A stretch of DNA of 64,000 nucleotides, from positions 18,290,001 to 18,354,000 of the forward strand of contig CM069159.1 of assembly GCA_035221665.1 (NCBI GenBank). The letters run 5' to 3'. The notes beneath the pieces were generated by a model. It saw only the letters and a list, made by a program, of their open reading frames with translations, ran no database searches and had not been told where the DNA came from. The DNA is from Okamejei kenojei (lineage: Eukaryota). Of the stretch, positions 5,598 to 62,762 are shown in pieces. Within the stretch, counting starts at the first letter, position 1. Every line of letters starts with the position of its first letter. Both the position numbers and the translations under genes were made by a program.

Positions 5598-6092
5598 AAA
5601 CACACACAAAGTGCTGGAGTAACAGTGGGTCAGTCAGCATCTTTGTAGAAGATAGTCTGGTGACGTTTAAGGTTCTTTAGACGCACTGTGTGGGGGGACG
5701 GGGGAGAGATAGCTAATAGAGAGGAGGGGCAGGCTAAAACCTGAAAGTGATTGGTGGATACAGGAGATGGGTTTTTTTGATAGGCAGATGGATGGTTGGA
5801 AAATGACCAGAGCTGAAGAGACAAAAAGTGTGAGTTAAGGATAAACAATGTATAAATTGTGAAGCCGTATAAAGGAATGTGGGTGGAAGTGGACAAGGAG
5901 AAAGGGAGAAATTAGTACAAATTCAGGTGGGGCACAGGGAAGGGTGGACGTGAAAGGGAAGGTGGGGGGGGGGGTGGAGGGGTGCAGGATTTGCTTGCAG
6001 ATTTGCTTCTTGAAATTGGAAAAAACAATGTTCATACCTTTCGGTTGTAGGTTACCCAAGCGGAATACGAGGTGATATTCCTCCATTTTAAG
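5598..6092 (-). mobile_element. Penelope-like element 3' end (GIY-YIG C-terminus plus terminal repeat)
   Basis: ORF 5835-6086(-) begins EEYHLVFRLGNLQPKGMNIVFSNFK. It is followed by a pyrimidine-rich UTR and a degenerate hammerhead-family repeat at about 5598-5682. Confidence 0.8.
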
Positions 6093-6457
6093 TCTGGTAT
6101 AAACAGTAATTTGGTTTCATAGTCAGAAAAAGTCCTTATTTTCCTTAATGTTCAACTCAATTCAGTGCCTCATTTTTTTTTTCGTGCAGCCTGAACGATA
6201 ACATCTTTGACACTAAATATTTTACTCCCTCAAATTGCACAGAAATATCACCCAAGATTGTATGTTCATGTGCACTCTAGAAGATGAGCCTATGCTCACC
6301 TGCGTTAGAAAGAATTGCCTCACAAGTAACAGTTAATTATGGTATTTGTAATTTGACAAATGGTCTTAATATGCTATTGCTTTTGTTTTGTAAAATATGT
6401 TAGAGACAGTCTGAAATGTTGTGTCAGGATTTATATCTTACACTCATTATCTACCTT

Positions 6458-6633
6458 AGAGAGAAGGAATGGGTGATGTTTCGGGTCGATACCTTCTTCT
6501 GTCTGAAGAAGGGGTTCGACCTGAAACGTCACCCATTCCTTCTCTCCAGAGATGCTGCCTGTCCTGCTGAGTTACTCCAGCATTTTGTGTCTATCTTTGG
6601 TGTAAACCAGCCCCTGCAGTTCCTTCCTAGACA
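6458..6633. mobile_element. Hammerhead-family PLE-derived short element, inverted pair
   Basis: Minus-strand arm at about 6458-6499 abuts a plus-strand copy CTGAAGAAGGGGTTCGACCTGAAACGTCACCCATTCC... Confidence 0.8.
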
Positions 6634-6698
6634 TTTCTACCTTTAGATATCACAATATTAAAATTACAGGAAAAATGTAAAATGGTCATCTATAGATT

Positions 6699-6970
6699 GG
6701 GGTGGCAGTGTGGCACTGCAGTAAGGCTGCTGCCTCACAGCGCCAGAGACTCTGGTTCGATCCTGACCATGGGTGCTCTCCGTGCGGAGTTTATGTTAGC
6801 TCTGTGATTGCTTGAGTTTGCTCCAGGTGCTCTGGTTTTCTAACACCACATACCAAAGACATGCAAGCTTGTAGGTGAACCGGCTTCTGTAAATTGCCCT
6901 TTGGGTGTAGGACATATAACTAATGTACGGGTGATCGATGATCAGCCTGGACTCGGTGGGCTTGGAAGGT
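6699..6970 (+). mobile_element. tRNA-derived V-SINE (HE1-like)
   Basis: A-box-like GTGGCAC..GTAAG, B-box GGTTCGATCC, central V-domain GGAGTTT..CCAAAGACATGC..GTAAATTGCCC. Confidence 0.8.
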
Positions 6971-9099
6971 GAATAGGGCAGCAACGAGGCACCCCAGTAA
7001 CAAACTTATATCTCCAGGTGTTGCAGCTTTGTTTTAAGCTACAATTGTTCTACTTGGATTTTCTTTCCCTCAAGCTGTGGCAGGACAACAACTGCAGGTT
7101 AGGATGAGCAGACCATCAAAGCCCATCAATTGGCAGGTGATGGGCAGATAGGGAAAAGGAGACCAGCCATTCTCTTGTGTGGGATCATGGAAAGACCAGT
7201 GCTTGGCAGTGGGTGTAATAGATTTGGGAATGGAGTGCAACTGTTTGGCGTTGGGGGGGGAGAGTGGGACCTGACTTGACAATATTGTGTGGGAGGGAAG
7301 AATTACAGGGTCAGGACTAGGTCTCATAGGATGGTGTCATTATTGAAGACCAGGCTAGCGATCACGTAAAGGGTGTTCCAGTTGAGCAGTTTATTTCACC
7401 AACAGGTATCACGTTAGATGTGGTGGAGTAGCCAAGGCCAAGACAAAATTTGACTCCAAAATGTAGGTCACATGGGGAAATAATCCATTGTGGAGTAATA
7501 ATGATTAAGGGTAATAAGGGTAACTGATGCAGGGAAAATGTCCAGACAGATTTTCTGAGTGGCATGAATCAACTGGAAATGGTTGTAATAGCGTTTCAAT
7601 TGCATAATACTGGAAGGAAATGATGTTATGTAATTATTTCTAGGGATATATATTTTATTTACTGTGCCATTAAAACCCTTTGTAAAATAGCTAGAAAGTT
7701 GTAAAATTAAACGATGAAATCAGATTTAATCTGTTACGTTTTGGAAACAAATGTACAACAATTAAGTAAAGACCCACAGATCTTTATCCTGACCGCATTC
7801 ACAGATTTTGAGATTAATTTTAGAATGGCCAAATTAAATTCAAATAAAAAATCCATTCAGATCCTTACTCAGATCTCTAAATATTCCTGGGCTTTCAGAG
7901 TGAAGTGAGACATTCTGTGCACATGGTACATGTGTTCAGATTTATCAGACTTAAAAGTTCCCTTCTGCAAAATAATTGATAATGTGTGGAAATGTGGAGA
8001 CCAGTTGCCCTCTGTACGCCATAGTAAGTGTTTATTTTGTCCCTTCTTTCAAAGTTAGTGACTGCAGTAGTTCAGTTTGCTGTCTGCGGTTGAATTAATC
8101 CCTTGGTCAAAAGGCCCCCTTAAAATTCCACCCTACATATCACATTACACTTTCTCCTCTCGTCAGTGGGCCTCCGTACACGTATATCATTCAGATAATT
8201 TGTGAAAAATGTGTCAATGTAGCTACATTATTAATTTGGTAGGTTATGACCAATTGCACCAACTTAACCATTGTAAAACCCCTTTGAGTTGAGTTTCTTC
8301 CAATGAGGCTTGCGTAAACTTTAAATTCTCCGTCCTAATTCTGTAGCCTTGTTCCTCCCACAGTGAGGCCTCTATCAACAATTTGGCAGTTTAGCCCAAG
8401 GCTTCACTGAACAAAATTGTCAAATTAGGCTAATTTTATCCTATGGACAAGTGTCCACTGGGAATTGATGTAGCTTTCTCCAACTCATTTCACTGAGGAC
8501 CATTAAATGCTTTCAGACGGAAAATAACCATATGGTTTTGAAAGAAACCCTCCCACTATTTTTTATGGCTTTAGCTTTAAATGTGCAGTCAAAAGCAGCA
8601 CGCTTATAGCCATTGCCTTGACGTGCAGTTTCATCATTCGATATCCCCTTCCAGTCTCCAGAGATAGTTGGCTTGACTTCCTCCTTTAAATATTCCTCAA
8701 TTGATTAATTATTGCTACGATTCACTGACGTGCATTCTGAAGATTCTAATTTCTGTCTTTTCGACCAATTTCACTGTTGGAATGACATTGTTCGGGACAT
8801 TCTGCTTTCAGCAGGATTTTGCAATGTATACAGCAGCAAGACATGCTGTAAAAATACCCCTCTCCTGGGAGATGTGCAGTATAAGCAATATTCTGAGCTC
8901 CATTTCACAGCATTGTGTTGTCCCATATGTAATCTTAGAAAGCATTTTCACAAATAGCAATGTAGCATTTTCTCCCTGTGTTTTAATTTTTCCATTTCAC
9001 AAAACGATACCTTCTCTTTGGTAAACCTGTACACGGTACCCTAGATGTGCTTTCACCAAATTCCACCCAAAAAAAACAACCAACATAAGACTTGCTGGA

Positions 9100-9305
9100 G
9101 ATAGATACAAAAGGTTGGAGTAACTCAGCGGGTCAGACAGCATCTCTGGAGAAAATAAATTATTGACATTTCGAGTCTGAAGAACGGTCTCGACCCGAAA
9201 TGTCACCTATTCCATTCCTCCAGTGATGCTGTCTGACCCGCTGAGTTACTCCGGCCTTTTGTGTCTGTCTTCAGTTTAAAACAGCATCTGCAGTTCCTTC
9301 CTACA
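9100..9305. mobile_element. Hammerhead-family PLE-derived short element, inverted pair
   Basis: Minus arm at about 9100-9174, plus copy from about 9175 CTGAAGAACGGTCTCGACCCGAAATGTC. Confidence 0.8.
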
Positions 9306-10149: not shown

Positions 10150-10660
10150 TGTGACATATGTGCACAGTTCATTGAAAATGGCAGAGGAGATGATGAAAGT
10201 GGTTAGAAAAAGCAAATGGGACTTTGAGCTTCATAAATACAGTCATAGACTACAAATGCTAGGTCATGCTGATCTGAAAAAAACACTAGTTTAGGTACAA
10301 CTGGAGGACTGTTTCCACCTCTCGGTGCCACACTTTTGCAAATATATAAAAAGCTTTGTAGATGGACAGACAAAACTCACCGAAATGATTCCAGTGATGA
10401 AAGTCTTTAATCATGTGGACTGACTGGAGAAGCTTAGGGTGCTCTCCTTGGAACAGAAAGGGAAGTAACGAGATTTGATAAAGATATTTCAAATCATGCA
10501 GGACCTACACTGAAATAAATTGTTCCCATGGTGATAGAAATAAATAGTTTTGAGAGGCAGGTGGATCAAGAATCGGGCCTTGTAAGAACAGAATAAAAAT
10601 GATTGTCAAAAGAACCATAGGTGACAAGAGGAAAAATAAATACACAGTGTGTGCCATGGA
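10150..10660 (+). mobile_element. CR1-type LINE fragment
   Basis: AAAGCAAATGGG..GTTTAGGTACAACTGGAG..CTGGAGAAGCTTAGGGTGCTCTCCTTGGA, a degenerate ORF2 C-terminus. Confidence 0.65.
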
Positions 10661-10664
10661 GATA

Positions 10665-10752
10665 GGTCTCGACCCAAAATGTCACCCATTCCTTCTATGC
10701 ATAGCTGCCTGTCCTGCTGAGTTACTCCAGAATTTTGTGTCTATCTTCGATG
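10665..10752 (+). mobile_element. Hammerhead-family short element (5'-truncated)
   Basis: GGTCTCGACCCAAAATGTCACCCATTCC..CTGAGTTACTCCAG..TTTTGTGTCTATCTT. Confidence 0.75.
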
Positions 10753-11086: not shown

Positions 11087-11245
11087 TTACTTTGCTGCCA
11101 GCTTGCCAGAGCCCTACAAATTATTTTCTTTCAGATTTCTCTTCAGCTCCATTGTGCATGTTGTGGTTGATTCTTTCTCCAGAAGCTGTGCACAAGCTGT
11201 GGATTTCTTTATCCTCGTGTCACCAATGGTTCTTTTCCCAGTCAT

Positions 11246-11343
11246 AACATCACCCATTCCTTCTATCCAGAGATGTTGCCGGTCCCGCTGAGTTACTCCA
11301 ACATTTTGTGTCTATCTTCAGCATCTGCAGTTCCTTCCTACAC
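11246..11343 (+). mobile_element. Hammerhead-family short element (5'-truncated)
   Basis: CACCCATTCCTTCTATCCAGAGATG..CTGAGTTACTCC..CAGCATCTGCAGTTCCTTCCTACAC. Confidence 0.75.
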
Positions 11344-12843: not shown

Positions 12844-13463
12844 TTCTTAAGCAAACATGTTAGAAAATGGAGGACAGTAGCCAATTATGTCCCAAAATGG
12901 AGCACTATCCAGGTATTGTGAGAATTGACCATATTCCATTTCTGTTTCTGGTTTCAGGGACAAAACAGACTATCCAGGCTTCCCTTATCTGTACTCGGGC
13001 AGTATGAACTGGAGAGGCAAGGTCACAGAATAGAGGGTTTGTGTTGGATAGTGACCAAGAAGCATATATTAGCTGTCCAAGAGATGATAGAACAATCATG
13101 TTATCTTTGTCTAACACTAGGTTGGGAATGCATATAATGCATTATCATGAATTGTTAATAATATTTGCTTGTAATAAACTAGGAAGAACTGGCAAAGATG
13201 GATTTTTCCATTTGTTCTGTGGAATTGGTTGCATGAGGCTATCTGTGATGAAAGCTTTGGCACCTTGAAATGGACCTGTGTCTATTGTGTACCCATGTGA
13301 TTCTTTGGCACCATGAATGGGTGTTCAATATTTCATGACTGATTGGTTGAATTGATTGAAAGATACATCATGGAAACTGGCCTGTCCCCAAATTTGCTCC
13401 GTTCTTCCATCATCCTTCACCCCTCCACAGTTCAATCAACCACTGACCCTTGTCCAAGTTCTT

Positions 13464-13572
13464 GTCACCCATTCCTTATCTCCAGAGATGCTATCTGTCC
13501 CGTGGAGTTATTCCATCCAGCATTTTGTGTCTATCTTTGGTTTGAACCAGCATCTGCAGTTCCTTCCAACAC
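13464..13572 (+). mobile_element. Hammerhead-family short element (5'-truncated)
   Basis: Same consensus body and tail as the other copies. Confidence 0.75.
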
Positions 13573-15887: not shown

Positions 15888-15975
15888 AAAACACAAAGTA
15901 ACTGAGCGGGTCAGGTAGCATTTGTGGAGGGAATGGATAAACTACGTTTCAGGTGGCTACCCTTTTTCAGACTGG
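15888..15975 (-). mobile_element. Hammerhead-family short element
   Basis: Reverse strand reads CAGTCTGAAAAAGGGTAGCCACCTGAAACGTAG..TGCTACCTGACCCGCTCAGTTAC. Confidence 0.65.
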
Positions 15976-17861
15976 CTCTCGATTCCAGCAACCGCAGTTC
16001 CTTCTGTCTCCAGAGTGAGAAATGGTGTGTCTGCAAGCCATTAAAATGTGGTAAAGCAATTTGGAGGCTATTCTCTCCTGTTTATTTACAACAACAAAAA
16101 CGAGGGCAGGATTTGGACCTCAGCTGATGGTGCTGAACATGCAATATGTTCATGAGGACTGTAATTAAATTTTACATGTGAGCAAGGCATGTAGCTCCAC
16201 TGATCAAGGACACGTTTCTCAGCATTAGTTCTGTTAACTATTCACAGATGAAACACCGAGAATCACTGAGACATTTGGAAGGCTAGCAAAGATAATTGTC
16301 CAGATTTTGCAGTCACCTGCAACCACTTACCACCAATCTTGATAACAAAAAGCCTACGCCTACTCTCGGTAATCCTTCCAGCATCAATTTTAATCGAATG
16401 CCGGGAGATTTTCCCACTTGCCCTTTAGTACTGCTATTGTGCATTTAATCGTGTCTGTGTCTTCACTATAGAGAGATAATTTGATGTGATAGATTAGGAA
16501 GATGATTATGTAAAGATAGCAAGTTGATATCAAGATAACACTGACTCCCTGCAGTACATGTCAACAAAATCAAAAATTGAAGTGTTATTTAACAATTCAA
16601 GCAGCAATGTATTGGTCTATTTGCAACACATTTGTCTTTGTTATCATATGTCTGCTCTTTTATCTGTGCTATTCCAGTTCATGTTACTATTCAGAAGGTT
16701 ATAAGTAGTTATTGATACTGTTAAAATTAATGGTTGGGTGACTCACTTTGACCCACTGAACATTATTCTTAGCACTCACCTTATCTGGTGATTGTAGGGC
16801 AGAAATATAAAGTGATTCATTTAAAAGGAGAATAAAAGAAAATTAAAAAGTCAAATCTCTAAGCGACATTGTGAAAAAGTTTAATGTAGTTTTATTTCTA
16901 AGCCCACTCTGCACAAGCATAATCGTAATTACATTTTCACATCCTAATTTTTATTTCAAAGCACCTGTTACTTGCAGAGTTCTATGTAGTTTCGAGTTTC
17001 AATGGAAATAAAGGTCACGATAAGAGTTAAAGTACGTTTATACCATTAATATTTTAAAAAAGTGTGAGTATGTGTTAATTTTCACTGAGGTATCCACTCC
17101 AGCTTAAGGGATAGACTTGATGCATCGGCCCCATGTTAATATAGATGTTCTCCCATGTCAAAGGCATGTAAGCAAAAACATTGGATGTCTATATGTTCAC
17201 GGGCTCCATTTATTCTTAATTATGGTCAATATGGAATGCAAAAAGAAACCAAGTAGGGAAGAGAGTGCATTATTTCCACTTCACCACTTCAGTCACTTAT
17301 TTCTATTCAATCTCTGCACTTCTAAGACTCCAACATAAAATTAAAGATACCTGTAATTCCTTATTTTGCATTGAGTCAGTGGTATGGAGCTATAATGGAG
17401 GAAATTAAAGACAGATCTTTGCAGTCTGCTTAATTAACTTTGCTATTTAGTTGAGATTGGAAGAAGAAAAAAAATGTTTTGCCATTAAAGTTAATAATTA
17501 AGTTAAGTAAAATGCAGGAAGTTTACATTGGAACCATATATCTCCAACACTAGTGAAGTTTGCTGTTAAAGCTTCTTCACTACAGAATCAATTTTCTGCT
17601 GGCAATAGATGATTTATACTGGCAAGCTGGAATCACACACTCACATCCAGGATAGAGTGCTACGCATGCATGCTGCCTGCTAGTAACAAGAATATGATTC
17701 TGTCTCTGAAGAATAAATTACTTAAGTGCCCAAGCAAGATTGTCCAAACATTCACGCTCTGCATTACAAGATCAGTGCTTTAGTATGTTGAACGTTGAGC
17801 TGTTTCAGTGGAGTGAATGTGGAAACCTAGTCAGCACTGCTCTGGTTTTACTTCAATAAGC

Positions 17862-18101: not shown

Positions 18102-18193
18102 TGACACAAAGTTCAAGAGTAACTCAGCAGGTGAGGCAACATGTTTAAAGGACATGGAAAGGCGATGTTTTGGGTTGGGATCCTTCAGACTGT
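18102..18193 (-). mobile_element. Hammerhead-family short element (degenerate)
   Basis: GACACAAA..GAGTAACTCAGC..GGCGATGTTTTGGGTT..CTTCAGACTG. Confidence 0.6.
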
Positions 18194-18729: not shown

Positions 18730-18958
18730 ACTCCATCATTTTGTGTCTATCTTCGTTGTAAACCAGCATCTGCACTTCCTTGTGTAAGACACAAAGAGCT
18801 GGAGTAACTCAGCGGGACAGGCAGCATCTCTGGAGAGAAGGAATGGTTTCGGGTCGAGACCAAGACTGTCACCCAGTCCTTCTCTCCAGAGATGCTGCCT
18901 GTCCCGCTGAGTTACTCCAGCTCTTTCTGTCAATTGTGGTTGCAGTTCCCTCCTACAC
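18730..18958. mobile_element. Cluster of hammerhead-family elements including an inverted pair
   Basis: Arms at about 18787-18846 and 18870-18931 are near-perfect reverse complements. An extra tail copy lies at 18730-18781. Confidence 0.8.
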
Positions 18959-24069: not shown

Positions 24070-24225
24070 AACTGGAAATGTGAAAAAGTTTGAAATCTGA
24101 AACAAAACACTCTTGGAAGTGCACAGTACATTAGGCAACATCTGTGGGAGGTAAACAGTGTTAATTGTTTCTCCCTCCACAGATGTTGCCTGACCTGCTG
24201 AGTAGTTATAGCATTTTCTGTTTTA
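24070..24225. mobile_element. Older PLE-derived inverted short element
   Basis: AGGCAACATCTGTGG / CCACAGATGTTGCCT inverted, followed by GACCTGCTGAGT..AGCATTTTCTGTTTT. Confidence 0.55.
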
Positions 24226-25327: not shown

Positions 25328-25807
25328 CAGTAAACCCTCCTTTTAATGGACCTCGTTATAACAGATTTCAGTTAGAGCGGACGGCTGCCAATGCCACCCC
25401 CATTTTGCACCCTCCCTAGCCGCTTCTAGTCTGGGCTGGCAACGCCAGCTCAGGCTTGCGACGCTTCCCCAGCCGCTTACAGATCTGGCTTCTGCCACAC
25501 CACTCTGGTTTGCACTGCTTTCAGGTCGGTCCTTCTGCCTCCACCACCGACCCTTACCTGCACTCGGCCGCCCGCGGGCCACGATCATTGACTCCGCCGA
25601 TTCTCCTCTCTCCCCCGGGTCTCGACTTGAAACACCACCAATCAATATTCTCCAGATATGCTCCAGCACTTTGTGTCCTTTTAAGCAACTGCAGTTCTAC
25701 CACTTACACAATGATAATACCTTACTCTGTTGTAGCATACAATTGGCAATAACGACCATTAATTCCCCCCACCCTCCTCCCACGGTTTGTTATAACGAGT
25801 GTTTACT
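25328..25807. mobile_element. Tc1/mariner (pogo/Tigger-like) MITE with a nested hammerhead-family fragment (about 25615-25708)
   Basis: Left end CAGTAAACCCTCCTTTTAA..CTCGTTATAAC, right end GTTATAACGAGTGTTTACT, GC-rich interior. Confidence 0.6.
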
Positions 25808-27146
25808 TTTTTAGGAGACTTGCAAACAACTTATTTCTATGATATGTAATAAATCATAGGAAGCATTGCCATTAACATTGGCATGAACATTTTGCAAAGC
25901 AGGCAAAAACAGCACACGTACGTAACAACTTTGCAACAACTGAGGTCGACTGTTTTACTGCCAACATTGGGAAAAAAAGTGTGGCATGTGAGAAGGACAT
26001 AATGGTCTGTCATTTTAATGGATAACAAAATATCATCAAATCACAGGCAGTGCAATGAAATTGCTGTTATTTTTCTGCAGCAGTTTCTTGATTTATTTTT
26101 GTGGCTCACGACAAGATTTCAAGCAAATCACATTATTTTCCATCGTTTTTGGAAGACTAATTTTATTGCCCTTTTATTTTTGTATTGTGATTTATATCTA
26201 AGGGATTAAAGATATTTTATGGGAGATTGGTACAGATAATATGTACTTGTGTTGCATGCAGAGACAATGTAGGGACACCAACAGATTTGACTATTTCACT
26301 CCTCCGAGGGTCAATGTCGTTTATTTGTGAAAATCAAAAATATGTTTCTTGCATGAAATTATATTCCCAGCCAGCAACAGCCTACAGTCATCCAGAACTT
26401 GTTGAATAATGTGACATTACGCTGAAAGATGTCAATCTTCATGGCGAACATGAATGTAAAATTGTAGCATTGTTAAAGATCCTTTATTTTTGAGCCCTGT
26501 TTAAAACAAAACTATGCATTTTGAGTTGTGTAAAGTTCGCTAGATTTAATTTGATAATTGACTTTAATGTTGAACACATGTGAGTAATTTAAAACTTTTC
26601 TTCCCAAATATTACAAGAAGCCTTTTACAAATTAAGAGAGTGATCTAGCATTATCATTTTCGGAAGGAGCTTCAGGATTTAGTCCCTTCTCACCCAAACC
26701 ACCCCCTCCCAGGTGCTTTCCCCTGCAACTGCCAAGGACCCCGACAGTCTTTTCAAGTGAGGCAGAGGTTCACTTGCACCTCCAACATCTACTAGTCCAG
26801 GTGTGGACTCCAATATATCAGCGAAACCAAGCGCAGGCTTGGCGATCGTTTCACTGAACACCTCTACTCAGCCTAAACATACCTGATCTCTCGGTTGCTA
26901 AACAATTAAATTCCCCCTCCCATTCCCACACTGACCTTTCTGTCCTGGGCCTCCTCCATAGTCAGAGTGAGGCCCAGCACTAATTGGGGCAACAACACAT
27001 CATATTTCTCTTGGGCAGCTTGGGCAGTGGTATCAATATTGACTTCTCTAACTTCAAGTAACCCTTGCTTTCTCTCTCTCTCTCTCCATCCCTTCTCCTT
27101 CCCAGTTCTCTGACCAGTCTGATTGTCCCGGATTACATTTTATCTC

Positions 27147-27247
27147 AATCCAGTCTGAAGAAGGGTCTCGACCCGAAACGTCGCCTATCTCCTTCGCTCC
27201 TTAGATGCTGCTGCACCTGAGTTTCTCCAGCTTTTTGTGTACCCACC
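27147..27247 (+). mobile_element. Young short hammerhead-bearing PLE-derived insertion nested in the Penelope 3' UTR
   Basis: Flanked by the 9-bp direct repeat TTTTATCTC (27138-27146 and 27248-27256). Intact core at 27155-27182. Confidence 0.8.
27153..27185 (+). ncRNA. Minimal type I hammerhead ribozyme motif
   Basis: CTGAAGA, extra A, stem II GGGT-CTCG-ACCC, GAAA, C-GTC. Palindromic ACGT in place of stem III, predicted cleavage after C27182, very short stem I. Confidence 0.65.
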
Positions 27248-28566
27248 TTTTATCTCTGGTTGCTTTGTTGTCACCTTTTAGCTAAGAATGATCTATTCTA
27301 CATTTTCCTTAATCCTAATCCCCTTTGATGTTTCATTCTCACACCTTACTCTTCCTTATCTCCGTGTCTCTCCCTCTCCCCTGAGTTACAGTTTGAAGTA
27401 GGGTTTAAACCCGAAATGTCACCTATTCCTTCTACCCACAGATGCTGCCTGTCCCGTTGAGTTTCTCCAGCATTTTGTGTCTATCTATTTTGTTCTGCAG
27501 TTTTGCCGTGAAAGGAATTGAGTGAGAATTAGTTGACTATAGATCAGCAGTTCTGTGGATGCTTAGTGCACTTGATTTATCAGGCTCTTTGGGACACCTT
27601 TTAAAGTTCAAAGTTAAGAATAGCACAACATTACTGAAAGTGCATCGACGTACTTCGATTTTTTTTATCCCCTCTCTCTATTATACCTAGTTTTCCCTTT
27701 TAAATAGCACCTGAGAACTCTATTAGATATTTCACCAGACATAATGTTTGGATTTTGCAGAGGGCTTCAATAAATTGTGCTATCCAGCATCCATTTTGGT
27801 GTAATTAAAACAATGTCGAGATATCATAATTTCCCCCCCTAATATTTAATACCTCCATGAATGGCAGGGATAAGGTCAAAGAGGCATTGGATCAGCAGAG
27901 TAAGTTTCTGGAGCTGCAAGTTTAAATATCATTCATTTCATCACTTCACTAGTTTCAAACCTTGCTTTACCTTATTTTTGCAGTTGTCGCAGGATTAGCA
28001 AGTCTGAAGTCTTAGCTAATGTAAATCACAGAGAGCAAGGATGAACAGGGCTAAAATAATGGATGAGAATGTGCAATACAGGCAACCCCCATGCAACGGG
28101 GTGGTTCATAGACAAAGTGAATTTTAAAATTATTTTTATATTATGACTTCAGTTCTGTATTGATTTATTCCAGATTTTTGCTCAAATTCTGTGAGAGCCA
28201 AGTGGCCATTTTCAGTGGCTCAAAATTTTGAGTCACAATTTGAGAATTTGGTTAGGGCAAATTTTCCATCACCTGACCAGCTGTAACTTGGGGATTGGCT
28301 TAAATGCTAAGTGCAGATAATTTTTTTTAAATATATACAAAGTTCAACAAAGTGTTGCTGTAATATATTTTATTCATGGCTGTATGCCATGCAAGTCCAG
28401 TTTAGGGACAAATGTCTCGGACAGCAAAAAAACAGAGCTGTATTAAGTGGCCCTCTATTGGGTCGCATTTTTACTGAAATGAATTTGCACATATGGCAAC
28501 CTACATTATATATTTAATTTAATTGATCTTTTGTGCTTTATTTACTAATTCATCCTCTCTGTACAT

Positions 28567-33051: not shown

Positions 33052-33148
33052 GAAGATAGGCACAAATTGCTGGAGTAATTCAGCGGGACAGGCAGCATCT
33101 CTGGAGAGAAGGAATGGGTGAGGTTTTGGGTTGAGACTCTTCTACAGA
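33052..33148 (-). mobile_element. Hammerhead-family short element nested in a SINE
   Basis: GCTGGAGTAATTCAGCGGGACAGGCAGCATCTCTGGAGAGAAGGAATGGGTGA. Confidence 0.75.
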
Positions 33149-33720: not shown

Positions 33721-33825
33721 TGGAATCCAACTTCCAGTCTTTTCATTTTAATAAGGTTCACATGGACTAATATTTCAATTCAAAAAATATTTATTTATAA
33801 ACACTCTTAACCAATCTTTTCTTAA

Positions 33826-35902: not shown

Positions 35903-36174
35903 TTCAAGATTTCTTTACAACATTTGGGAATTGGTCTGTTTTTTTCAGTAATGGTACTGCTTGAATATGCTGTGTGAAATCCATGTTTTTCCAGGAACAT
36001 TCCTTCTTACTGACCGGGCACTCTGCCACCTTTGTACTCATTGAATTCTTCAACTTCAGATAAACTGCTGTCTCATAATTTCCCATCATGCTAATATCCT
36101 TTTCTCAGTTCCTTTCCATAAATTGTCTCCCATTTGGTCAGCACTCATGTTGCTTATTATGTGTGTTGTATATT

Positions 36175-37835: not shown

Positions 37836-37974
37836 TCTGACTTCACCCCTCCCCCCCCCCCCCCCCCCAGCTGTTTTGAAAACTGTTACCTCTTCACTCT
37901 TCCCCCTGACCCAAAATAATGAACTAGTTTCTCTTTCCACAGATGCTGCTTGACTCTCTGTTCTTGAAGCCATT

Positions 37975-38630: not shown

Positions 38631-39777
38631 AGGATTTCTGTCCTTAACTCAGATTTGGACAGACGCAATTGTATTTATTATTCACTTGAGTTTGTTCAAA
38701 GCCAAGTAGTTTCTGACTTGGGAGGATAAAAGACAACGGGAGTTGATAACCGCCAAAACATTTCCTTGCTCATGTGCCACAAGACGCTCCTTGCATCTAT
38801 TCCTTCCTGACTGTTCATCACCCCCTCTGTCCAGACAGGGTGCTTTTAGGAATGGTAATGGAGATGTCTGCGGCATTGAGTCTAAATGTGATGATATGAA
38901 ACTAGCTGGCCAGCCTGTTAGACTGCTCTCCCAATTGGGTATGTCCCTGGATATTCTTGAGTGCGACCTTTCATTGTTAAGTGGGAGAACTGAACCCTTT
39001 CAGTTAAATTGAGAAGCTGGAATTGGCTGACCATTAGACTGTTTTAGGGTGCTTTGAGGCGATTGAGTATCTTGACAGGTCATTTCATGGAAGATTGAAA
39101 GTTACATTTGACCCACACTTGCTGCAGACAACAGATTTAATTCCCGAAACTATGTTGATGAACACAATTGTCTTGGAAACCCATCTGGCATTTTTGCATT
39201 CACTTTTATCAGCACTTGCATTTCCAGATTAAATTAGTTAACGGAATACATTTTGCAGCTGCCTTTGTGGAATTTGAATGTTTTTTGAACACTCGTCAAG
39301 ACCACTCGTTAGGAGGCCAGTAATAACTATGCAGAACAATAATTAAATTGGCCCGTTAGAAAGAATACTAGCTGTTCTTTTTTTCTAGATTATGAAATAG
39401 ATTTGATTTAATTCTTGTTTCAAGGGCACATGTTCCAGAAAGCAGTTGAAAAACGATTGTTAAGTGAGAATCACATCCTTAAAAATTGTTGGTCATTAAT
39501 GAGTGAGACTGATTGCAGCTGATTATGTGGACCTGTGCAAAGATTAGTACTCAGTTCATGTATAATCTCAAGGAGAGTATTAAGTGGAAGCATTTTTAAA
39601 TTCACAGAAGAATCAAATGTGCACGAAGGTAGTCATTTAGAACAATTTCACTCCAAGCTGATTTGGTTCAATCTGGTTTAAAAAAGGAAGCAAGGGCACG
39701 ATTCAAATAATCACACAGTCATAGCCAAGGTGGGCAGCTTAAATGTTTTTTTTTAAACTATTAACTCAACGGAAAAA

Positions 39778-39870
39778 TCTGATAAAGGGTTTTGACCCGA
39801 AAAAATCAGCCATTCCTTCGCTCCAGAGATGCTGCCTGTCCTGCTGAGTTACTCCAGCATTTTGGGTCTA
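39778..39870 (+). mobile_element. Hammerhead-family short element
   Basis: TCTGATAAAGGGTTTTGACCCGAAA..CCATTCCTTCGCTCCAGAGATGCTGCCTGTCC. Confidence 0.7.
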
Positions 39871-40875
39871 ATTCAATGGAAAAGCTAGATGGTCCCGTAT
39901 ACCTGGGGATATATCTGTAATAATGTCAAATCTCCTGTTTCTATTTCAAAAGATAAATCTGCAGGGCATTTGAATGTAAAATCTAATGAATGAAACAAGC
40001 AGATTACATATTAAACTTGTAGTTTTAAGTGGAAACACTATTACATGTTAGCAAAGACATCAGGAAGGGTCTGTCGCTATTCCTGTACACTTGCTAATTG
40101 GGGATGGGAGGTATTCTACTGGACTGTTCGAAAGGAAAAGAATTGTACTGTGTTAGCAATTAACATTTGTGACAACAAAAGCACTATTGACCATTTTTGC
40201 ACTGGTTGACCAGAAAAAGTGCCAGGGGAAATACATTCCTCCTCCTATAAGGTTTGTGCTGAAAGTCTTAACAGAAATTTCAGCGATATTTCTGCAAGAA
40301 AGGATGCTCGGGAACAGATTGCATGCGCTGTGCGTATTGTTATTCTGCCAGCTGTCATAAAATGACCAAGTTTGCCATTTTGTATAGATGAAGATCTTAC
40401 TTAATTTCCTTAAAATCGACTTCCATTATTGAAAGCTGTAAGCGGGAGGTTATTTAAGAACCAATTGCTTACTGCAATTTCTTTATTAATTGAAAGATTG
40501 CCAAGAAATTAAAGCCCTTGAATGGGTTTAATCCCTGCAATAGACAGCCAGCTGCTAAAATCATATGTAGAAATCACCCATCAGCACATTGGTGTCTTCA
40601 TTTGACCCATCTCTTCCTTATAAAGAGAGAGGGAGAATGCTTATGATTCAGGTGAAAGACCCTTCAGCTCACGAAGGGTGTTTGACTGCAGTATGTTAAC
40701 TGTTTCTCTTTCCACGGATGCTGCCTTGCTCACAGGCAGTTTACAGCATTTTCTGTTTGTTTTTAAATTTCATTTTCTGGCATCTACAATTTCATTTAAC
40801 ATTTCCATATCCTATTCATTGTTCGTTCCCCACTGCAATAATGCCACTGCTTTATACCACTGCAGATATACCACT

Positions 40876-49661: not shown

Positions 49662-50076
49662 ATGCAATTGGAGGAACAGTGCCTCATATTTTGCTTGAAC
49701 AGCTGAGAGTCTAGTGGTATGAATATTGATTTCTCTCACTTCAAGTAACGCTCGCATTACTAGTCGTCCGACTAGTTTCACTGCCATCCTGCTTAGTTTC
49801 ACTGCTTACTGTATATCCACTCGTTATTAGTATATCACCTTTTCCACAGCCAACAACAGACCATTGTGGACTCAACCTTTCTTTGATCTGGCTGGCTTTG
49901 ATTTGTTCTTTTCATACCTTTCATTCATTTGTTCTTTGTACCTTTTCATACCTTGAGTTTCCCTCTGCCCTGACTCTCTGTCTGAAGAAGAGTCTCGACC
50001 TGAAATGTCATCTATTCCTTTTCTCCAGAGATGCTGCCTGACCCACTGAGTTGCTCCAGCATTCGGTGTCTATCTT
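49662..50076 (+). mobile_element. Penelope-like element 3' end with terminal hammerhead-family repeat
   Basis: QLEEQCLIFCLNS*..SGMNIDFSHFK*, then UTR, then CTGAAGAAGAGTCTCGACCTGAAATGTC at about 49982-50009. Confidence 0.8.
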
Positions 50077-51964: not shown

Positions 51965-52460
51965 ATGAATCACACAGAACAGTACAGCAAAGGAACAGGC
52001 ACTTTGGCCCATCCTTGCCTGCTCTGATCATAATGTCAAATTAAACTCATACCATCTGTCTGCATATGGCATGTGTCCCTCTAGTCTCTGCTTCTTCGTG
52101 TCTGTTTAAATGCCTCTTACCTGCTTCTACTTTCTCCCCAAGCAGTGTGTTCCAGGCAAGCAGGACTTTAAAAAAAAACTTGCATTACAAATCTCCTTTT
52201 AACTCACCTCTCTCACCTTAAAGACTGACAAAAATGCTGGAGCAACTCAGTGGGTGAGGCAGCATCTATGGAGAGAACATACGTCCTCTAGTAGTTGACA
52301 TGTTCATCCCCTGGGAAAAATATGTAGATTAACTGACATGTCTCTCATAATTCTATGCACTTCCACAGGACGTTTCACAGCCCCCGAGGCTTCAGAGATA
52401 ATATTCCAGGTTTGTAGCTAAAACTCTTAATGCCTGGAATTATTCCAGTAAACCCTTCTG
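51965..52460 (-). mobile_element. Older CR1-type 3' fragment
   Basis: AGAACAGTACAGCAAAGGAACAGGC..GCAGTGTGTTCCAGGCA..CTCTCACCTTAAA. Confidence 0.65.
52225..52277 (-). mobile_element. Hammerhead-family fragment nested in CR1
   Basis: ACAAAAATGCTGGAGCAACTCAGTGGGTGAGGCAGCATCTATGGAG. Confidence 0.6.
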
Positions 52461-53824: not shown

Positions 53825-54675
53825 GTTCTGGTCCCTGCCTTTCATCCCACTAGCCTCCGCCTGCATCCAGCACATAATTTCCGCCACTTTCAATTCACCA
53901 CAGGGACCACACATTGCATAGCCTTTTGGCTCGTTCATCTCCTCAACCACCTTTCCCCCCCCACCCAAGGAACTCCCCCTCCCTGCAACTACAGGAGATG
54001 TAACACCTATCCTCTACTGTTCCTTCCTCGTCTCCATTCACCTCTCCCAAACTGCTTTTCCAGGTGGGACAGGGGTTTGCATGAAACTCCTCCAGCCTAG
54101 CCTGCAGCATGTGGTGCTCTCCATCTGACCTCCTCTACATGTCTGACATAATGGTTAGACAAGGTGATCACTTTGACAAACATGTGCTCCGTCCACCAGG
54201 GCCAGCTGAGGTTTCTGTTCAGAACCCAATTGAATTCCCTTCCCTTTCGCAGACTGATCTGTCTGGTTACCCCATGTCCCCTCTTCCATCCACTCTTCTT
54301 CCACCATGCCCTATCAACCTCCTTCATCCCTCCCTCTGGATCAATATTTCAGTCTCCACCTTCCTTCCTTCTCAGAGGTTTGTCTTTCGTCTTTTCCACT
54401 TATCACCTCCATACTTTCTCCTCCCACCTCTCCCCCACTTAACTCACATGCCAACAACCCCTTCACACATGGACCCACCTATCACTCACTATCTCTTGTT
54501 CCACACCTTCCCCCATCACCTCTTTCTGTTGGCTGTCTACCCTCTACTCTCTGTTGGAAGATTGGTACTAACCAGAAACATCTGTCCATTTCCCTCCACA
54601 GATGCTGCCTGACCCGTTGAGTTCTTCCAGCAGTTTGGTTTTTGCTCAAAATGTTAGCATCTGCAGTCTCTTGTG
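53825..54675 (+). mobile_element. Degenerate Penelope-like element 3' portion (linker, GIY-YIG, terminal repeat)
   Basis: FHPTSLR..QHII.RHF, PCNYRRCNT, FQVGQGF, WCSPSDLLYMSD..RQGDHFDKH, SPSLSQTDLS. Terminal repeat CCATTTCCCTCCACAGATGCTGCCTGACCCGTTGAGTT at about 54586-54624. Confidence 0.75.
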
Positions 54676-56100: not shown

Positions 56101-56109
56101 TGTTTGAAG

Positions 56110-56207
56110 ATGTCTGCGGAGGAATTCTGACCCAAAACGTCACCTATTCCTTTTCCCCCAGAGATGCTGCCTGACACGCTGAGTTACTCCAGCATTTTAT
56201 GTCTACA
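56110..56207 (+). mobile_element. Hammerhead-family short element
   Basis: GTCTGCGGAGG..GACCCAAAACGTCACCTATTCC..CTGAGTTACTCCAGCATTTT. Confidence 0.7.
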
Positions 56208-56754
56208 CCTGTGGATGGTATCTGCAAGCAGTAGCAGTCTTTTGCGGTCATTTCAATTTTTGATGATCAGTCTCAAAATCAAGGGCTGTAGAAAATAAAA
56301 CATAGAGTCTGAGACTGACGTCATGATAACAAATCAGCAGATAATGAGGACTGAATACAACAATCTGAAAATGCTCTAATGTTGAAATAGTGCTGCTGAT
56401 GCATTATTCCCACTGAGATTACTTGTGAGCTAATCAGCTACAAGCATGAATGACTTCCAGAGAGCACCTGGGCAATCTAAACAAATCGAGAATTATCAAA
56501 TGTTTTTCATTTCTATAATTGTAAAATATAATTTCCATGTTTAACTTTTAAGACAAACACAGCTCTTGTACATTCATCCTTCATGACAGCGTAGCACATT
56601 TGTTTACACTGATAAGAACATAAGCATATTAGGAGCAGAATTAGGCCATATGGTCCCTCAAGCCTGATAAAATTTGACAAGAGTTTTCATTTTTTTAAAT
56701 GATAATCGTTTCCATTTGCATAAGGTTGAAAAGACTGAACATGTATGCTGCAAT

Positions 56755-56892
56755 AAAAGCAGCAGATGCTGGAAACACACAGCAGGTCGGGCAGCATCTG
56801 TGGACCTGGGAAAACAAGGATAACATTTCCATACCTCCATTATTTTCAGTCTTGGTTGCAGATCTCCAGCCTCTGCAGTTTTATTTTTGCTT
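56755..56892. mobile_element. Older PLE-derived short element
   Basis: GCAGATGCTGGAAACACACAGCAGGTCGGGCAGCATCTGTGG ... CTCCAGCCTCTGCAGTT. Confidence 0.5.
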
Positions 56893-58348: not shown

Positions 58349-58928
58349 GTGGGCAGCTTCACTTGGGCAGCTTACAAGTTACAACACAATATTTTGAGTA
58401 TTGATTTTGTTAACTTTAAGTAACCCTTGCTTTCCCTCTCTCTCTGTCTCTCCCCCACCCTTACAAGTCGAGGTATACAAACAGCAACATTAATCAGGAG
58501 GACAGCGAAACTAGTAGGAGAACCTATAGAGCCTCAGCATTACATCTCTGTTTTTGTATACAAGTCCTCTCGATGATTTTATCCCAGTGTTAGTGATAGA
58601 ACAATGACATTAATTTATTATGCTAGCATTTATTTCGAGAGGGCTTGTATACAAAAACAGAGATATAATGCTGAGGCTCTATAAGTTCTCCTACTAGTTT
58701 CGCTGTCCTCCTGATTAATGTTGCTGTATGTATACCTCAACGGCAGCTTCCCCTCAACCAACAATGGACCATAGTACATTTCCTCGATCATTTGCACCCT
58801 TCCATAGCTCTAGTTTCCCTCTCCCCTGATTCTCAGTCTGAGAAAAGGGTCTCTACCCAAAACGCAGCCCATTTCTTCTCTCCAGAGATGCCCACCCCGC
58901 TGAGTTACTCCAGCATTTTGTGTTTATC
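58349..58928 (+). mobile_element. Penelope-like element 3' end containing an internal inverted rearrangement
   Basis: TTGGGCAGCTTACAA..ATTGATTTTGTTAACTTTAAGTAA (LGSLQ..IDF.NFK*), the same UTR as the 27061+ and 49750+ copies, and a terminal repeat at about 58834-58928. Confidence 0.75.
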
Positions 58929-60915: not shown

Positions 60916-61173
60916 TACTCAAATTCAAATAGGTTTATAATTCGCTGCTTGATGATTTATCAGGTTCCTTGGCTAAACTACAGGTTATGATTCAGCCACA
61001 TGGTAACCATTTTAATTTATTGTCCACCATTTGGCATGAAAATAGCTTTTATTCTAATATAATGCAAGTTAAACTAGACATTTAAATTTGATAAAGCATG
61101 TTAAGTTCTCATATTGTAAAATGGAAGGAATTGTAATGTCTTAACGAACAGTCGCATTCATTCCACGGCCCTT

Positions 61174-61465
61174 TTTAGAGATGGGAGCATGGAAACGGGC
61201 CCTTCGGCCCTCGGAGTCCGCATGTTATCCCAGTTTTGCATCCTACACAATAGGGGCAATTTACAGAAGCCAATTAACTTACACAAACCTGTACATCTTG
61301 GGAAAAGAAATGGGAGGAAACCGCATTTTATGCACCTGGAGAAAAACTGACATAGTCACAGGGAGAAAGTACAAACACTGCACAGACAACACCTATAATC
61401 AGGATTGATCCCAGGTCTCTGGCGCTGCAAGCCACCAGATCTACTGCTCATCCACTGTGTCGTGT
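61174..61465 (-). mobile_element. HE1-like V-SINE
   Basis: TTTAGAGAT..GGAAACGGGCCCTTCGGCCC..GGTCTCTGGCGCTG. Confidence 0.75.
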
Positions 61466-61715
61466 GCTATGTATAACTCAGTGCAGCAGGACCTCAAAGT
61501 ATCGAATAGTTGAGCTAATTTGGATCCTGTTAATGTGTTAATGTATCCTGCGTTAATATGTTGCGGGATATCGACCAAGGTATGGTGACTGCCTTCAATC
61601 AACAAGTGCTTCTCTGCCTTGTGTTTGAATGAATCATGACAGCATCAAAAATCCCAACTCCCAATCCCCCTCCATTCTCTTTGCCTTATCATGCATTTGT
61701 GAGCACGGTTGCTGA

Positions 61716-61930
61716 AGGGGCTGTCCCACTTTCACGACCTCTGCCGAGTTTGCCCTTGACTCGTACTCGCAGCATGGTCATCATGAGGTCGTAGGAGGTC
61801 GTAGGTAGGTTGTGATGCTAGTCGTAGTTACTCGTGGCATCAAGTAGGTCGGAGCATTTTTGCAACATGATGAAAAATGTCCACGAGTAAAAAAGGTTGT
61901 GCATTAGGTCTTGAAAGTTGGACAGGCCCT
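61716..61930. mobile_element. PIF/Harbinger-type MITE
   Basis: TIRs AGGGGCTGTCCCACTTTCA / TGAAAGTTGGACAGGCCCT, with a 3-bp TSD TGA at 61713-61715 and 61931-61933. Confidence 0.85.
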
Positions 61931-62685
61931 TGAGAGGGTACCTCTGTTTCTCCCAGCTATGATATTTGAATTTGTTCTACCTTTTGAATCACCAAGCTAT
62001 TTTAATTACAATTTAAAATAGCTTCCTATAGCAAACACCATCTTTAATTTCCCTCTCATAGATCAGGTGACCTGTTACGTTACATAACAGCTGAATATCT
62101 TACCAATATCAACTCTTCCTGTGTTAACCAATCTCAGCAAGCTTTTATATATTTGTTCCATTGAGTGTATCAAAGTGAGAACATTTCACCTGGCCATATA
62201 AATGTTGAAGTTGAAGCGAAGAGATTGATATTATTCTGAATTTTGGAAATGGGTAAGTACTAGGTACTATTTTGCCTAAGTACTAGGCAAAATGCAGTAA
62301 AAGATTATTAATGAAAACAAAACCCAAAAGGGGATGGAAATGTTTATTGGATTTGGTTAACTTCTGTGGTCTATTTTATGTTTGTCAGCTTGAAACCTTT
62401 TCAGATTCATAGAATGGCTACAGTTTGGAAGGCCATTCAGTCCATCATGCATGTGTCAGTGCTCTACCAGGGACAATCAGACATTACAGCTAGGAAATGT
62501 CCCTCACTGTGCATTTATCAAAGTTTGCCCTGTACATCACAATGGAACCCACCAGGACAGGACACACTTGCATGAAGTTCATTTCAGAACTCACCTCCCG
62601 CTGTGTTTAAATATAGAAGTTTTTCAAAACAAGGGCTGGAAAGGACGTTACAGCTTGCATACTCATCCTTTGCTATGAGCTCCAC

Positions 62686-62762
62686 TTCTGAAGAAGGGTC
62701 ACCCATTCCTTCTCTCCAGAGATGCTGCCTGTCCCGCTGAGTCACTCCAGCTTCTTGTGTCT
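62686..62762 (+). mobile_element. Hammerhead-family short element with the core internally deleted
   Basis: CTGAAGAAGGGTC is joined directly to ACCCATTCC, a GTC-to-GTC deletion that removes GACCCGAAAC. Confidence 0.75.

Follow-up and report, generated by a model that had tools for sequence, protein, structure and literature searches.

The question raised by this locus is what the many short hammerhead-bearing repeats within it are and how they were made. It was addressed in a window of 64,000 nt of Okamejei kenojei CM069159.1, from which all copy statistics below were taken. The repeat units are almost certainly the 3′ terminal repeats (solo pLTRs) of an EN+ Neptune-like Penelope element. Most of the short ones begin at one fixed point which, to judge from the surrounding motifs, may mark the RNA start of the element.

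Repeat family and its Penelope-like source

With a profile made from 12 of the copies, 34 matches spanning 2,769 bases were obtained in the window at E≤0.01, and none in the reversed window and five shuffles; blastn gave 32 matches in the window and none in 10 shuffles and the reversed window. The weakest three profile matches were those at 18730, 37908 and 40672 (E 0.0009-0.01). The matches were grouped by hand into 29 insertion units (Table 1), which became 26 loci after merging of nested or abutting units. The resulting density, one locus per 2.2-2.5 kb, agrees with the 25-28 loci, one per 2.5 kb, of an earlier note on this DNA, and 29 of the 34 matches were without coding sequence, as that note had stated for most copies. 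No full-length element copy, RT or partial tandem was found in the 64-kb window.

By tblastn, a stingray protein of Penelope-like elements (PLEs) matched four of the five coding remnants, at 26592-27058 (E 8e-26), 6095-6009 (E 2e-8), 53860-54186 (E 1e-6) and 49662-49745 (E 0.001), with the best control match at E 0.32. The Penelope origin proposed in the earlier note was thereby upheld, and mobilisation by PLE RT/endonuclease was rated as supported. The fifth of its GIY-YIG remnants, at 58349, stands at the DNA level only (58399-58454, 84% to the 26.7-kb remnant, E 2e-11), its match to the PLE protein being weak. The homologue P0001 carries the Cys linker, and its GIY-YIG match (E 0.0008, 20.1 bits) lies slightly under the Pfam cut-off of 22.6. 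The unit said to terminate the remnant at 26682 is present, as 27390-27486; the nearer one, 27147-27244, is a copy of a younger subfamily that was inserted into the 3′ UTR of this remnant and has its own target duplication.

Two alternative 3′ ends lie ~35 nt apart, with or without an optional tail (14 matches at E<1 and 11 at E<0.01; controls E≥0.12). Target duplications were significant in eight of the 29 units, with ~1.5 expected (p≤0.05 against 812 mismatched flank pairs), and not in the other 21. Seven units are inverted, with the intact tail confined to one arm in five and two ambiguous; inverted arms and an optional tail are textbook PLE anatomy. Nothing common was found past the 3′ ends among the 21 copies tested. 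Copies continuing into the PLE 3′ UTR or ORF are present in each subfamily, and diagnostic bases are common to ORF-linked and short copies; the tree of copies was mostly poorly supported (2 of 24 branches with support).

EN+ PLEs of the Neptune (or Nematis) clade have the same C-terminal GIY-YIG endonuclease after a Cys linker, the same hammerhead-bearing pLTR, 5′ truncation and inverted arm, and the same optional tail (30-40 bp) and target duplications (~8-17 bp), whereas the window family is very dense (4.3% of the window) and has a sharp 5′ boundary. The family is ordinary in kind, a member of the already-known class of truncated PLE ends. This is largely the outcome that the earlier note had named as counting against its proposal, solo minimal hammerheads from truncated PLEs having been described as massive in many animals (PMC4209133).

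Table 1. PLE copies, repeat units and example motifs in the window (TD, target duplication)
Feature	Positions	Strand	Remarks
5′-truncated PLE copy	5598..6110	-	GIY-YIG endonuclease ORF end (6095-6009), 3′ UTR, degenerate terminal unit (5674-5598); 17-bp imperfect TD
Head-to-head unit	6457..6633	.	short minus arm 6457-6499, full plus arm 6501-6599 with tail; 8-bp TD
Head-to-head unit	9099..9305	.	minus arm without tail, plus arm with tail; 12-bp TD
Solo unit without tail	10657..10749	+	5′ end ~+5
Solo unit with tail	11243..11343	+	start inside core, ~+26
Solo unit with tail	13463..13572	+	start close to cleavage site; 10-bp TD overlapping 5′ junction
Older unit on minus with inverted tail-only arm (15982-16007)	15890..16007	.	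12-bp TD
Older solo unit	18103..18190	-	5′ end ~-1
Very short unit end with tail	18730..18785	+	weak match
Head-to-head unit with internal deletions	18786..18957	.	
Old partial unit	24172..24221	+	inverted partner immediately upstream by eye, left out of counts
Degenerate unit, partial tail	25617..25697	+	
5′-truncated PLE copy	26682..27486	+	zinc-linker remnant, GIY-YIG endonuclease (stop 27059-27061), 3′ UTR, terminal unit 27390-27486
Young subfamily-B solo unit	27147..27244	+	nested in 3′ UTR of PLE copy 26682..27486; 12-bp TD
Intact minimal hammerhead core, example	27155..27182	+	predicted cleavage after 27182
Solo unit without tail	33052..33148	-	5′ end ~+3; sits in SINE-like repeat
Solo unit	33825..33915	+	5′ end at +1
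Young subfamily-B head-to-head unit	34394..34660	.	tail on minus arm only; both arms extend 17-24 nt into 3′ UTR; perfect 14-bp TD
Unit without tail	35548..35660	-	extends ~14 nt into 3′ UTR
Head-to-head unit	35686..35905	.	palindromic junction at core's 5′ edge; tail on minus arm only
Old partial match, weak	37908..37960	+	E 0.0014
Solo unit	39777..39871	+	15-bp TD directly adjoins 5′ end at ~+3
Old match, weak	40672..40761	+	E 0.00085
5′-truncated PLE copy	49662..50076	+	endonuclease last 28 codons, 3′ UTR, terminal unit 49980-50076
Partial unit without core	52221..52277	-	
Older 5′-truncated PLE copy	53828..54672	+	thumb/linker and endonuclease remnant, 3′ UTR, unit 54553-54638, partial tail
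Solo unit	56112..56208	+	5′ end ~+2
Old unit on minus with inverted tail-only arm (56859-56880)	56763..56880	.	
5′-truncated PLE copy	58349..58928	+	endonuclease ORF extreme end (DNA-level support only), 3′ UTR broken up by another repeat, unit 58835-58928
Initiator-like (also splice-acceptor-like) hexamer, example	58833..58838	+	A at 58835 is +1 of the pile-up of 5′ ends
Solo unit, stem II deleted	62687..62765	+	5′ end ~+3

The hammerhead core

The hammerhead-like core described in the earlier note was found letter-perfect at two sites, 27155-27182 and 34566-34593. In it, CUGANGA carries an additional A, CUCG closes a stem II of 4 bp, and GAAA is accompanied by the palindrome ACGU and by GUC. 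Helix I has only 2-3 bp; on its length, as on the fixed 5′ end, the earlier note was silent. The core was spanned by 17 of the 34 matches and scored as intact, by a lenient rule, in six. Judged by its letters, it fits the published minimal-hammerhead (type I) consensus, which supports the presence of such a motif in the terminal repeat as proposed before. The minimal hammerheads of metazoan PLEs (PMC4209133) have the same CUGANGAH, G10.1-C11.1 and GAAA, the same palindrome replacing helix III, a U-rich upstream sequence, and mostly solo copies with opposite-strand pairs close by, the helix I found here being at the short end of theirs (usually 3-5 bp). Between subfamilies A and B, differences were seen at 0-1 of 30 positions in the core and at 11-14 of 60 downstream of it (Fisher p 0.014), so the core was constrained in the source elements.

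Two checks suggested by the earlier note were negative: the Rfam hammerhead models gave no match in the window even at E≤10, and covariation was not above shuffles (one compensatory cell of 107). Predicted monomer folds gave pairing probabilities of ≤0.13 for stem II and ~0 for helix I, with preference for a hairpin pairing the core with downstream sequence. The predicted monomers do not fold as hammerheads, and self-cleavage of the monomer is doubtful. The hairpin preference and the two negative checks, together with the short helix I and the failure of eight of nine tested frog dimer elements to cleave, would suit a core that is no longer a working ribozyme here and is kept as a promoter or protein-binding site, a reading compatible with the explanation preferred below. 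It is nevertheless considered less likely than not: neither the majority sequence nor either subfamily has lost a catalytic position or the ACGU palindrome, 2-bp cases of helix I exist among published PLE hammerheads, the anole motif cleaves once its protein is added, and covariation is not expected in neutrally decaying copies.

The 5′ boundary and promoter-like motifs

Fifteen of the 29 short copies, or 13 of the 24 short units when counted by insertion unit, start at -2..+6 of one A immediately before the CUGA box, with the 5′ ends curated by hand and the pile-up spread over 8 nt. The truncation rate in this interval was 0.107 per nt, ~20 times the rate elsewhere (0.005 per nt downstream, 0.018 just upstream and 0 over the remaining 3′ UTR). 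In an independent anchored alignment, none of the 15 pile-up copies continued upstream (p 0.06-1.0) and all seven extended copies tested did. Several pile-up copies retain one or two bases upstream of the boundary A. No description of a sharp 5′ boundary of such PLE units was found in the literature.

With the boundary A taken as +1, scoring by the consensus table of PMC4581360 gave Inr 6/6, MTE 9/12, Bridge I 5/5, DPE 5/6 and G+24, the motifs overlapping the ribozyme core with the right spacing. An equal match was reached at 2 of 117,424 background positions and by 0.04% of random hammerheads with identical geometry, in a test made after the pile-up had been seen and with thresholds taken from the element's own score; the downstream motifs were matched by 1.2% of random hammerheads. 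Part of the match is supplied by the hammerhead GAAA and GUC. Individual copies score lower (MTE 7-9/12, DPE 4-6/6), and human promoters show no enrichment of the MTE (PMC8384218). By eye, TCAKTY lies ≤~15 nt upstream of CUGA in 9 of 56 published PLE-type hammerheads, with 1.2-1.8 expected by chance under assumed base compositions. With a pyrimidine tract before it, the TCAG at the boundary also makes a good 3′ splice acceptor; in Drosophila virilis Penelope, the intron extends as far as the 5′ end of helix I. That element is transcribed from the same kind of TATA-less internal Inr/DPE promoter inside the pLTR (PMC2377424), starting 46 nt before a 75-nt intron that is followed by the hammerhead, whereas the candidate promoter of the window family, which is a prediction, would overlap the hammerhead core directly.

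Origin of the short copies

It is proposed that the units are dead-on-arrival, each inserted separately by target-primed reverse transcription. The boundary A would be the transcription start. From either of the two tail sites in the 5′ leader, a primed RT would reach the RNA end and run off after ~100 or 135 nt, and these run-off cDNAs of the uncleaved leader would be the abundant short copies. The inverted pairs would come from priming on both nicked strands, and the five long copies reaching into the 3′ UTR and ORF from rarer priming in a downstream unit of a tandem transcript, with the hammerhead merely carried along and having no role in copy making. For Poseidon PAc of Anolis carolinensis (PMC11167929), the PLE protein nicks both DNA strands, the tail results from internal initiation of reverse transcription at two neighbouring sites toward the 5′ end of the RNA, the main template is uncleaved RNA and the hammerhead requires protein. 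The window family has the same two 3′ ends one tail apart, both-strand insertion geometry and hammerhead near the pLTR/ORF junction, and likewise gives no sign of cleaved RNA as template; PAc differs in belonging to another clade and in having been tested biochemically, the window family being known from its sequence. Internal priming was demonstrated for that Poseidon-clade element and not for Neptune. The whole statement, solo pLTRs of an EN+ Neptune-like PLE with run-off as its likeliest form, is given an even chance, and the run-off step itself, as read from the sequence, is held tentatively, at somewhat less than that; the bases kept upstream of the boundary A, which strict run-off would not copy, count against it.

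Those same bases would be accommodated if long cDNAs of the same PLE 3′ ends were truncated prematurely, with a hot spot on the 5′ margin of the core caused by a bound protein, a splice-acceptor complex or annealing of a CAG-N-CTG palindrome, with no transcription start involved. PLEs are typically heavily 5′-truncated, the boundary motif is acceptor-like, and palindromes at inverted junctions are known and read as self-priming (PMC3846280), the 35815/35819 junction being one. However, in eight of the 15 pile-up copies the insertion is single and not inverted, so fold-back fails to explain them, and two of these eight have a target duplication at or ≤5 nt from the boundary; moreover, an RT halted by the hairpin predicted for the monomer would end at the 3′ base of that hairpin, ~50 nt earlier, splicing does not create a free 5′ end, and no upstream exon common to the copies was seen by eye. 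Such a hot spot is therefore regarded as a possible but less probable cause. A self-propagating non-autonomous family (SINE- or MITE-like), whose solo units would be transcribed from an internal promoter of their own and mobilised again by the PLE protein, appears improbable. Its discrete 5′ and 3′ ends, internal promoter-like motifs and preponderance of non-coding matches would be accounted for, and rotifer pLTR sequences sufficed to mobilise other DNA; against it, each subfamily is tied to ORF-linked copies by continuation and by diagnostic bases, the absence of a common 3′ flank among the 21 ends gives no sign of re-mobilisation, and solo copies are without the sequence beyond the tail, which the PLE protein of the anole requires in its RNA.

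Least probable by far is a retrozyme origin, in which cleavage and ligation would yield small circular RNAs as the template for reverse transcription and insertion. Animal non-LTR retrozymes are likewise non-coding, hammerhead-bearing and derived from PLE pLTRs, and are present in one chondrichthyan genome (mean 363 bp). They are, however, defined as tandem units with a hammerhead in each, and have mostly canonical hammerheads and circular RNAs (PMC7229834; bioRxiv 2026.07.22.740005), whereas the window copies are solo or inverted, carry a minimal hammerhead with the weak monomer pairing predicted above, and do not have their ends at the cleavage site. The 22 tandem-repeat rows included no array of the unit. 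A start at most 4 nt from the cleavage site was seen in only two of the 29 short copies, and copies are not permuted at that site. These two results largely ruled out the retrozyme reading for the window and leave the label "retrozyme-like" of the earlier note unsupported.

The 56 motifs from 40 species in Fig. S3 of Cervera and de la Pena 2014 (PMC4209133) include no cartilaginous fish, and descriptor matches number 4,000-9,000 for coelacanth and Xenopus in the same work. If the window is typical, the copy number in Okamejei kenojei would be far above those values, as an extrapolation made under a different counting rule.

Repeat family and its Penelope link

A profile of the ~100-nt unit was built from 12 window copies and gave 34 matches covering 4.3% of the window, with 0 matches in the reversed window and five shuffles. 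By blastn, 32 matches were found in the window vs 0 in 11 controls, and the repeat observation of the earlier note was thus borne out. The 34 matches were grouped by hand into 29 insertion units, or 26 loci, giving a density of one unit per 2.2-2.5 kb within the window. Copies were 2-31% off the computed majority sequence (CpG left out), and this wide span of divergence implies a prolonged period of insertion. In a tree of 27 of the 34 matches, the young subfamily B (27152, 34434, 34564) was the sole well-supported larger clade (support 100/99). An old inverted partner of the 24172 match was seen by eye at ~24120-24165 (minus strand) and stands outside the count.

The Penelope link was examined by tblastn with P0001 (a stingray homologue of the Penelope-like element (PLE) protein) as the query. 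Four remnants were matched at E 8e-26, 2e-8, 1e-6 and 0.001, respectively (best control 0.32), and the fifth remnant (58349) was backed by DNA similarity only, so that the claim of five coding remnants holds at the protein level for four and at the DNA level for one. The best named protein match was from the stingray Hypanus sabinus, and by this one match the host appears to be a cartilaginous fish. A search with the last 68 codons gave 29 relatives and a C-terminus common to the five aligned. No family was matched by any of six window fragments in a Pfam search, and the GIY-YIG match of P0001 (E 0.0008) was under the cut-off. The reverse transcriptase (RT) portion of P0001 had no window match at a useful E by tblastn, and P0001 had no Pfam RT match at E<=0.1, though by eye it seems to carry RT-like motifs. 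A CX2-5CxxC zinc-finger linker between RT and endonuclease was found in P0001 and in the protein P0009, and degenerate traces of it remain in the 26.7-kb and 53.9-kb copies. This linker is the criterion for the Neptune/Nematis clade in the accessible text of bioRxiv 2021.04.23.441226, and the motifs in these sequences point to Neptune or Nematis, not Poseidon. The PLE protein of the window belongs to a known family and is decayed.

In 5/5 remnants the unit follows the stop codon in the same orientation and is therefore regarded as their 3' terminal repeat. The earlier picture of the 26682 remnant had to be amended: its terminal unit is 27390-27486, and the copy 27147-27244 was inserted into its 3' UTR afterwards. 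In the fifth remnant, an inverted-repeat insertion akin to 58183-58296 splits the 3' UTR at 58467-58741. In 3/4 remnants checked (27056-27064, 49741-49749 and 58418-58426) a GTAAC that resembles a splice donor overlaps the stop codon, and the remnant 3' UTR ends with a pyrimidine tract plus CAG. An intronic 3' UTR is conceivable, but it is retained in 5/5 ORF-linked copies.

Target duplications of 8-17 bp were detected for 8/29 units (p<=0.05, relative to 812 mismatched flank pairs). Seven units were head-to-head, with the tail (the optional 3' extension) intact on a single arm in five and ambiguous in two. The unit 3' ends fell at two places, just past the unit or ~35 nt further, and among 21 unit ends compared neither read-through past the tail nor 3' transduction was seen. 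The window held no full-length PLE copy in which a partial tandem (terminal repeat, ORF, terminal repeat) would show, and nothing in common was found beyond the 21 unit 3' ends. Target duplications, inverted arms and the tail belong to known PLE anatomy in the available parts of bioRxiv 2021.04.23.441226, PMC3846280 and PMC8969392; an inverted 5'-truncated arm with a 30-40 bp tail at one end is described in the first two, and the origin of the tail is ascribed to two internal RT start sites in PMC11167929 (available in part). Around 35538-35680 and 35904-35910, two neighbouring insertions seemingly have one AT-rich target site in common, with duplications of which neither is significant alone (p 0.12-0.16). 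By eye, the unit 33052-33148 is inserted in a repeat similar to that at 6700-6960.

Other features of the window
Feature	Position	Strand	Basis
IgLON coding exon	20403-20582	plus	neurotrimin E 0.0007, OPCML E 0.012
HDV-like ribozyme	9498-9572	minus	Rfam CPEB3 model 32.9 bits, E 6.9e-5, gathering score 35
Second dispersed repeat	6700-6960 and 11 further matches, e.g. 47157-47365, 63657-63832, 42704-42978		
MITE-like element	10773-11089, directly after the 10657 unit		50-bp terminal inverted repeats, 86% alike
LINE-like protein fragments	36122-36813, 37551-37919, 38224-38563, 55644-56015, 57674-58371		translations
Assembly gap	~19360-19535		176 N in whole window

The IgLON (neurotrimin/OPCML-like) exon ends at 20582; what follows it makes up most of the window and is probably one long intron. 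The HDV-like ribozyme, a single copy in the window with P1, P2 and the catalytic junction intact by eye, may head a short retroelement reaching ~9345. The second dispersed repeat is taken by us to resemble the vertebrate V-SINE, and the LINE-like fragments presumably correspond to the C-terminal part of a CR1/L2-type LINE protein.

Condition of the hammerhead core

The majority core was compared with the minimal hammerhead consensus of PMC4209133 and its supplement (both available in part) and fits CUGANGAH...GAAAN-palindrome-NUH, with an additional base following A9, G10.1-C11.1 and a palindrome in the place of helix III all present. By a lenient rule the core is kept in 6/34 unit matches. 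Subfamilies A and B differ at 0-1/30 core positions and at 11-14/60 downstream positions (p 0.014), and this far smaller difference in the core suggests constraint on it in the source elements. Over all decayed copies, conservation outside CpG was 0.92 in the core vs 0.86 in the flank, a weak difference.

That the core does not cleave at all is possible rather than probable. Helix I has 2 bp in subfamily A and 2-3 bp in B, with a pairing probability of ~0, and a longer helix I common to both was searched for and not found. The pairing probability of stem II is <=0.13, and the monomer favours pairing of the core with downstream sequence. Monomer folding gave z from -0.9 to +0.4 in 5/6 copies and -2.1 in one; stem II was present in the minimum-energy fold of 1/6 copies and the full hammerhead in 0/6, and constrained folds cost 4-14 kcal/mol. 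In the computed homodimer of the 44-nt core, stem II rather than the ACGU palindrome pairs between strands. Two checks raised in the earlier note were run: no hammerhead family was among 15 Rfam matches at E<=10, and in helices I and II 85% of cells were paired with 1 compensatory, no better than shuffles, in 18 decayed copies of few subfamilies where little signal is expected. The Rfam hairpin matches at 18802-18917 correspond to an inverted unit pair. Against a non-cleaving core, three published minimal motifs also have a 2-bp helix I (PMC4209133), and an anole motif is cleaved once protein is supplied and only then (PMC11167929); by analogy, putative core activity may persist.

Fixed 5' end and promoter-like motifs

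The 5' ends of short copies were curated by hand and expressed relative to A(+1), the A just before the CUGA box. Starts at -2 to +6 were found in 15/29 copies and 13/24 short units. The truncation rate per nt was 0.107 at -2 to +6, 0.005 downstream, 0.018 in the adjoining 23 nt on the upstream side and 0 in what is left of the 3' UTR; under a uniform null with 100 positions the pile-up has a binomial p of 9e-10. In an anchored alignment of 22/34 matches, 0/15 pile-up copies extended into the 3' UTR vs 7/7 extended copies. The old 56763 copy (~56820-56852, minus strand) seems to run into a diverged core, which would give an extra, uncounted end near +1.

The sequence around this boundary was compared with core-promoter consensuses taken from the accessible parts of PMC4581360 and PMC8384218. 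A(+1) lies in a 6/6 Initiator (Inr), and the majority sequence holds MTE 9/12, Bridge I 5/5, DPE 5/6 and G+24, all spaced as required. Among 117,424 background positions 2 matched equally well, as did 0.04% of random hammerheads built with the same geometry; the test was made post hoc, after the pile-up was seen, and the hammerhead GAAA and GUC contribute to the match. TCAKTY just before CUGA was counted by eye in 9/56 published motifs, vs 1.2-1.8 expected; 5/9 of these include AG, so splice acceptors could be an alternative. For D. virilis Penelope, an internal Inr/DPE promoter in the terminal repeat (pLTR) is reported in PMC2377424 (available in part).

The same boundaries bear on three other explanations. 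Animal retrozymes are tandem units, two or more in a head-to-tail row and every one bearing a hammerhead (PMC7229834; bioRxiv 2026.07.22.740005, both in part), and no head-to-tail unit array was present among 22 tandem-repeat rows in the window; the closest same-strand units, 35548-35660 and 35686-35819, have unrelated sequence between them. Cleavage-defined 5' ends were likewise rejected, with only 2/29 short copies beginning near the cleavage site. That the unit is a retrozyme is thus highly improbable, and of the earlier interpretation the Penelope link stands, through the remnants matched by P0001, and the retrozyme-like label falls. A self-propagating, SINE-like non-autonomous solo family would have a discrete 5' end, as do 15/29 short copies within 8 nt; the tree of 27/34 matches is mostly without resolved branches, diagnostic bases of short copies also occur in ORF-linked copies, and a general Rfam scan gave no tRNA/5S/7SL-type RNA at the units. 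We regard such a family as unlikely. A non-transcriptional truncation hot spot might also lie behind the 5' ends, which we consider possible rather than probable.

Proposed insertion route and its meaning

On the anatomy, boundaries and motif matches observed in the window, we tentatively propose, without holding it probable, that the 30-nt core is dual-coded, acting as an Inr plus MTE/DPE Pol II promoter in DNA and as a protein-assisted ribozyme in RNA, with internal priming at the tail copying the leader only, as far as the start site. In PLEs elsewhere both strands are nicked, RT is primed internally at two sites within the 5' portion of the RNA, and the template is uncleaved, its 5' end setting the product length (PMC11167929, in the text available). 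Transcription start and run-off are here inferred: PLE transcripts would start at A(+1), RT primed in the leader would run off the RNA after ~100 or 135 nt, and two run-off cDNAs at opposite nicks would give a head-to-head unit. Less frequent priming in the downstream unit of a tandem transcript would yield ORF-bearing copies.

In many animals, truncated PLEs are reported to have given rise to solo minimal hammerheads on a massive scale (~4,000 in coelacanth, 9,000 in Xenopus; PMC4209133, in part), and the unit family is an additional PLE minimal-hammerhead family of this known kind. Cartilaginous fish are missing from the 56 motifs in the accessible part of that paper. For one chondrichthyan, tandem retrozymes (mean 363 bp) are reported, together with co-occurrence of PLEs and retrozymes (bioRxiv 2026.07.22.740005), and in the available parts of whale shark papers Penelope elements are present and expanded in introns. 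The literature found holds no account of the unit family, which Repbase, Dfam or Lunse et al. (RNA Biol 14:1499) may contain, nor of a hammerhead 5'-end pile-up or hammerhead-promoter overlap.

The catalogue value is modest: PLE minimal hammerheads are now placed in a cartilaginous-fish-like genome, at a density that may be unusually high. The fixed 5' end weighs more, as it bears on pseudo-LTR regeneration, termed unexplained in the accessible part of PMC2377424, and on the role of PLE hammerheads, and many short copies with a sharp boundary make both directly testable. Should the promoter overlap be borne out, PLE "ribozyme" cores could owe part of their conservation to transcription, and the copies would amount to a large reservoir of cryptic start or splice sites within long introns. 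Dual coding, if true, could perhaps extend to many PLEs and would give a one-step account of solo pLTRs and minimal hammerheads far exceeding full PLEs; with leader run-off it would also explain pseudo-LTR regeneration, and very many promoter-plus-ribozyme cassettes would have been sown across the genome.
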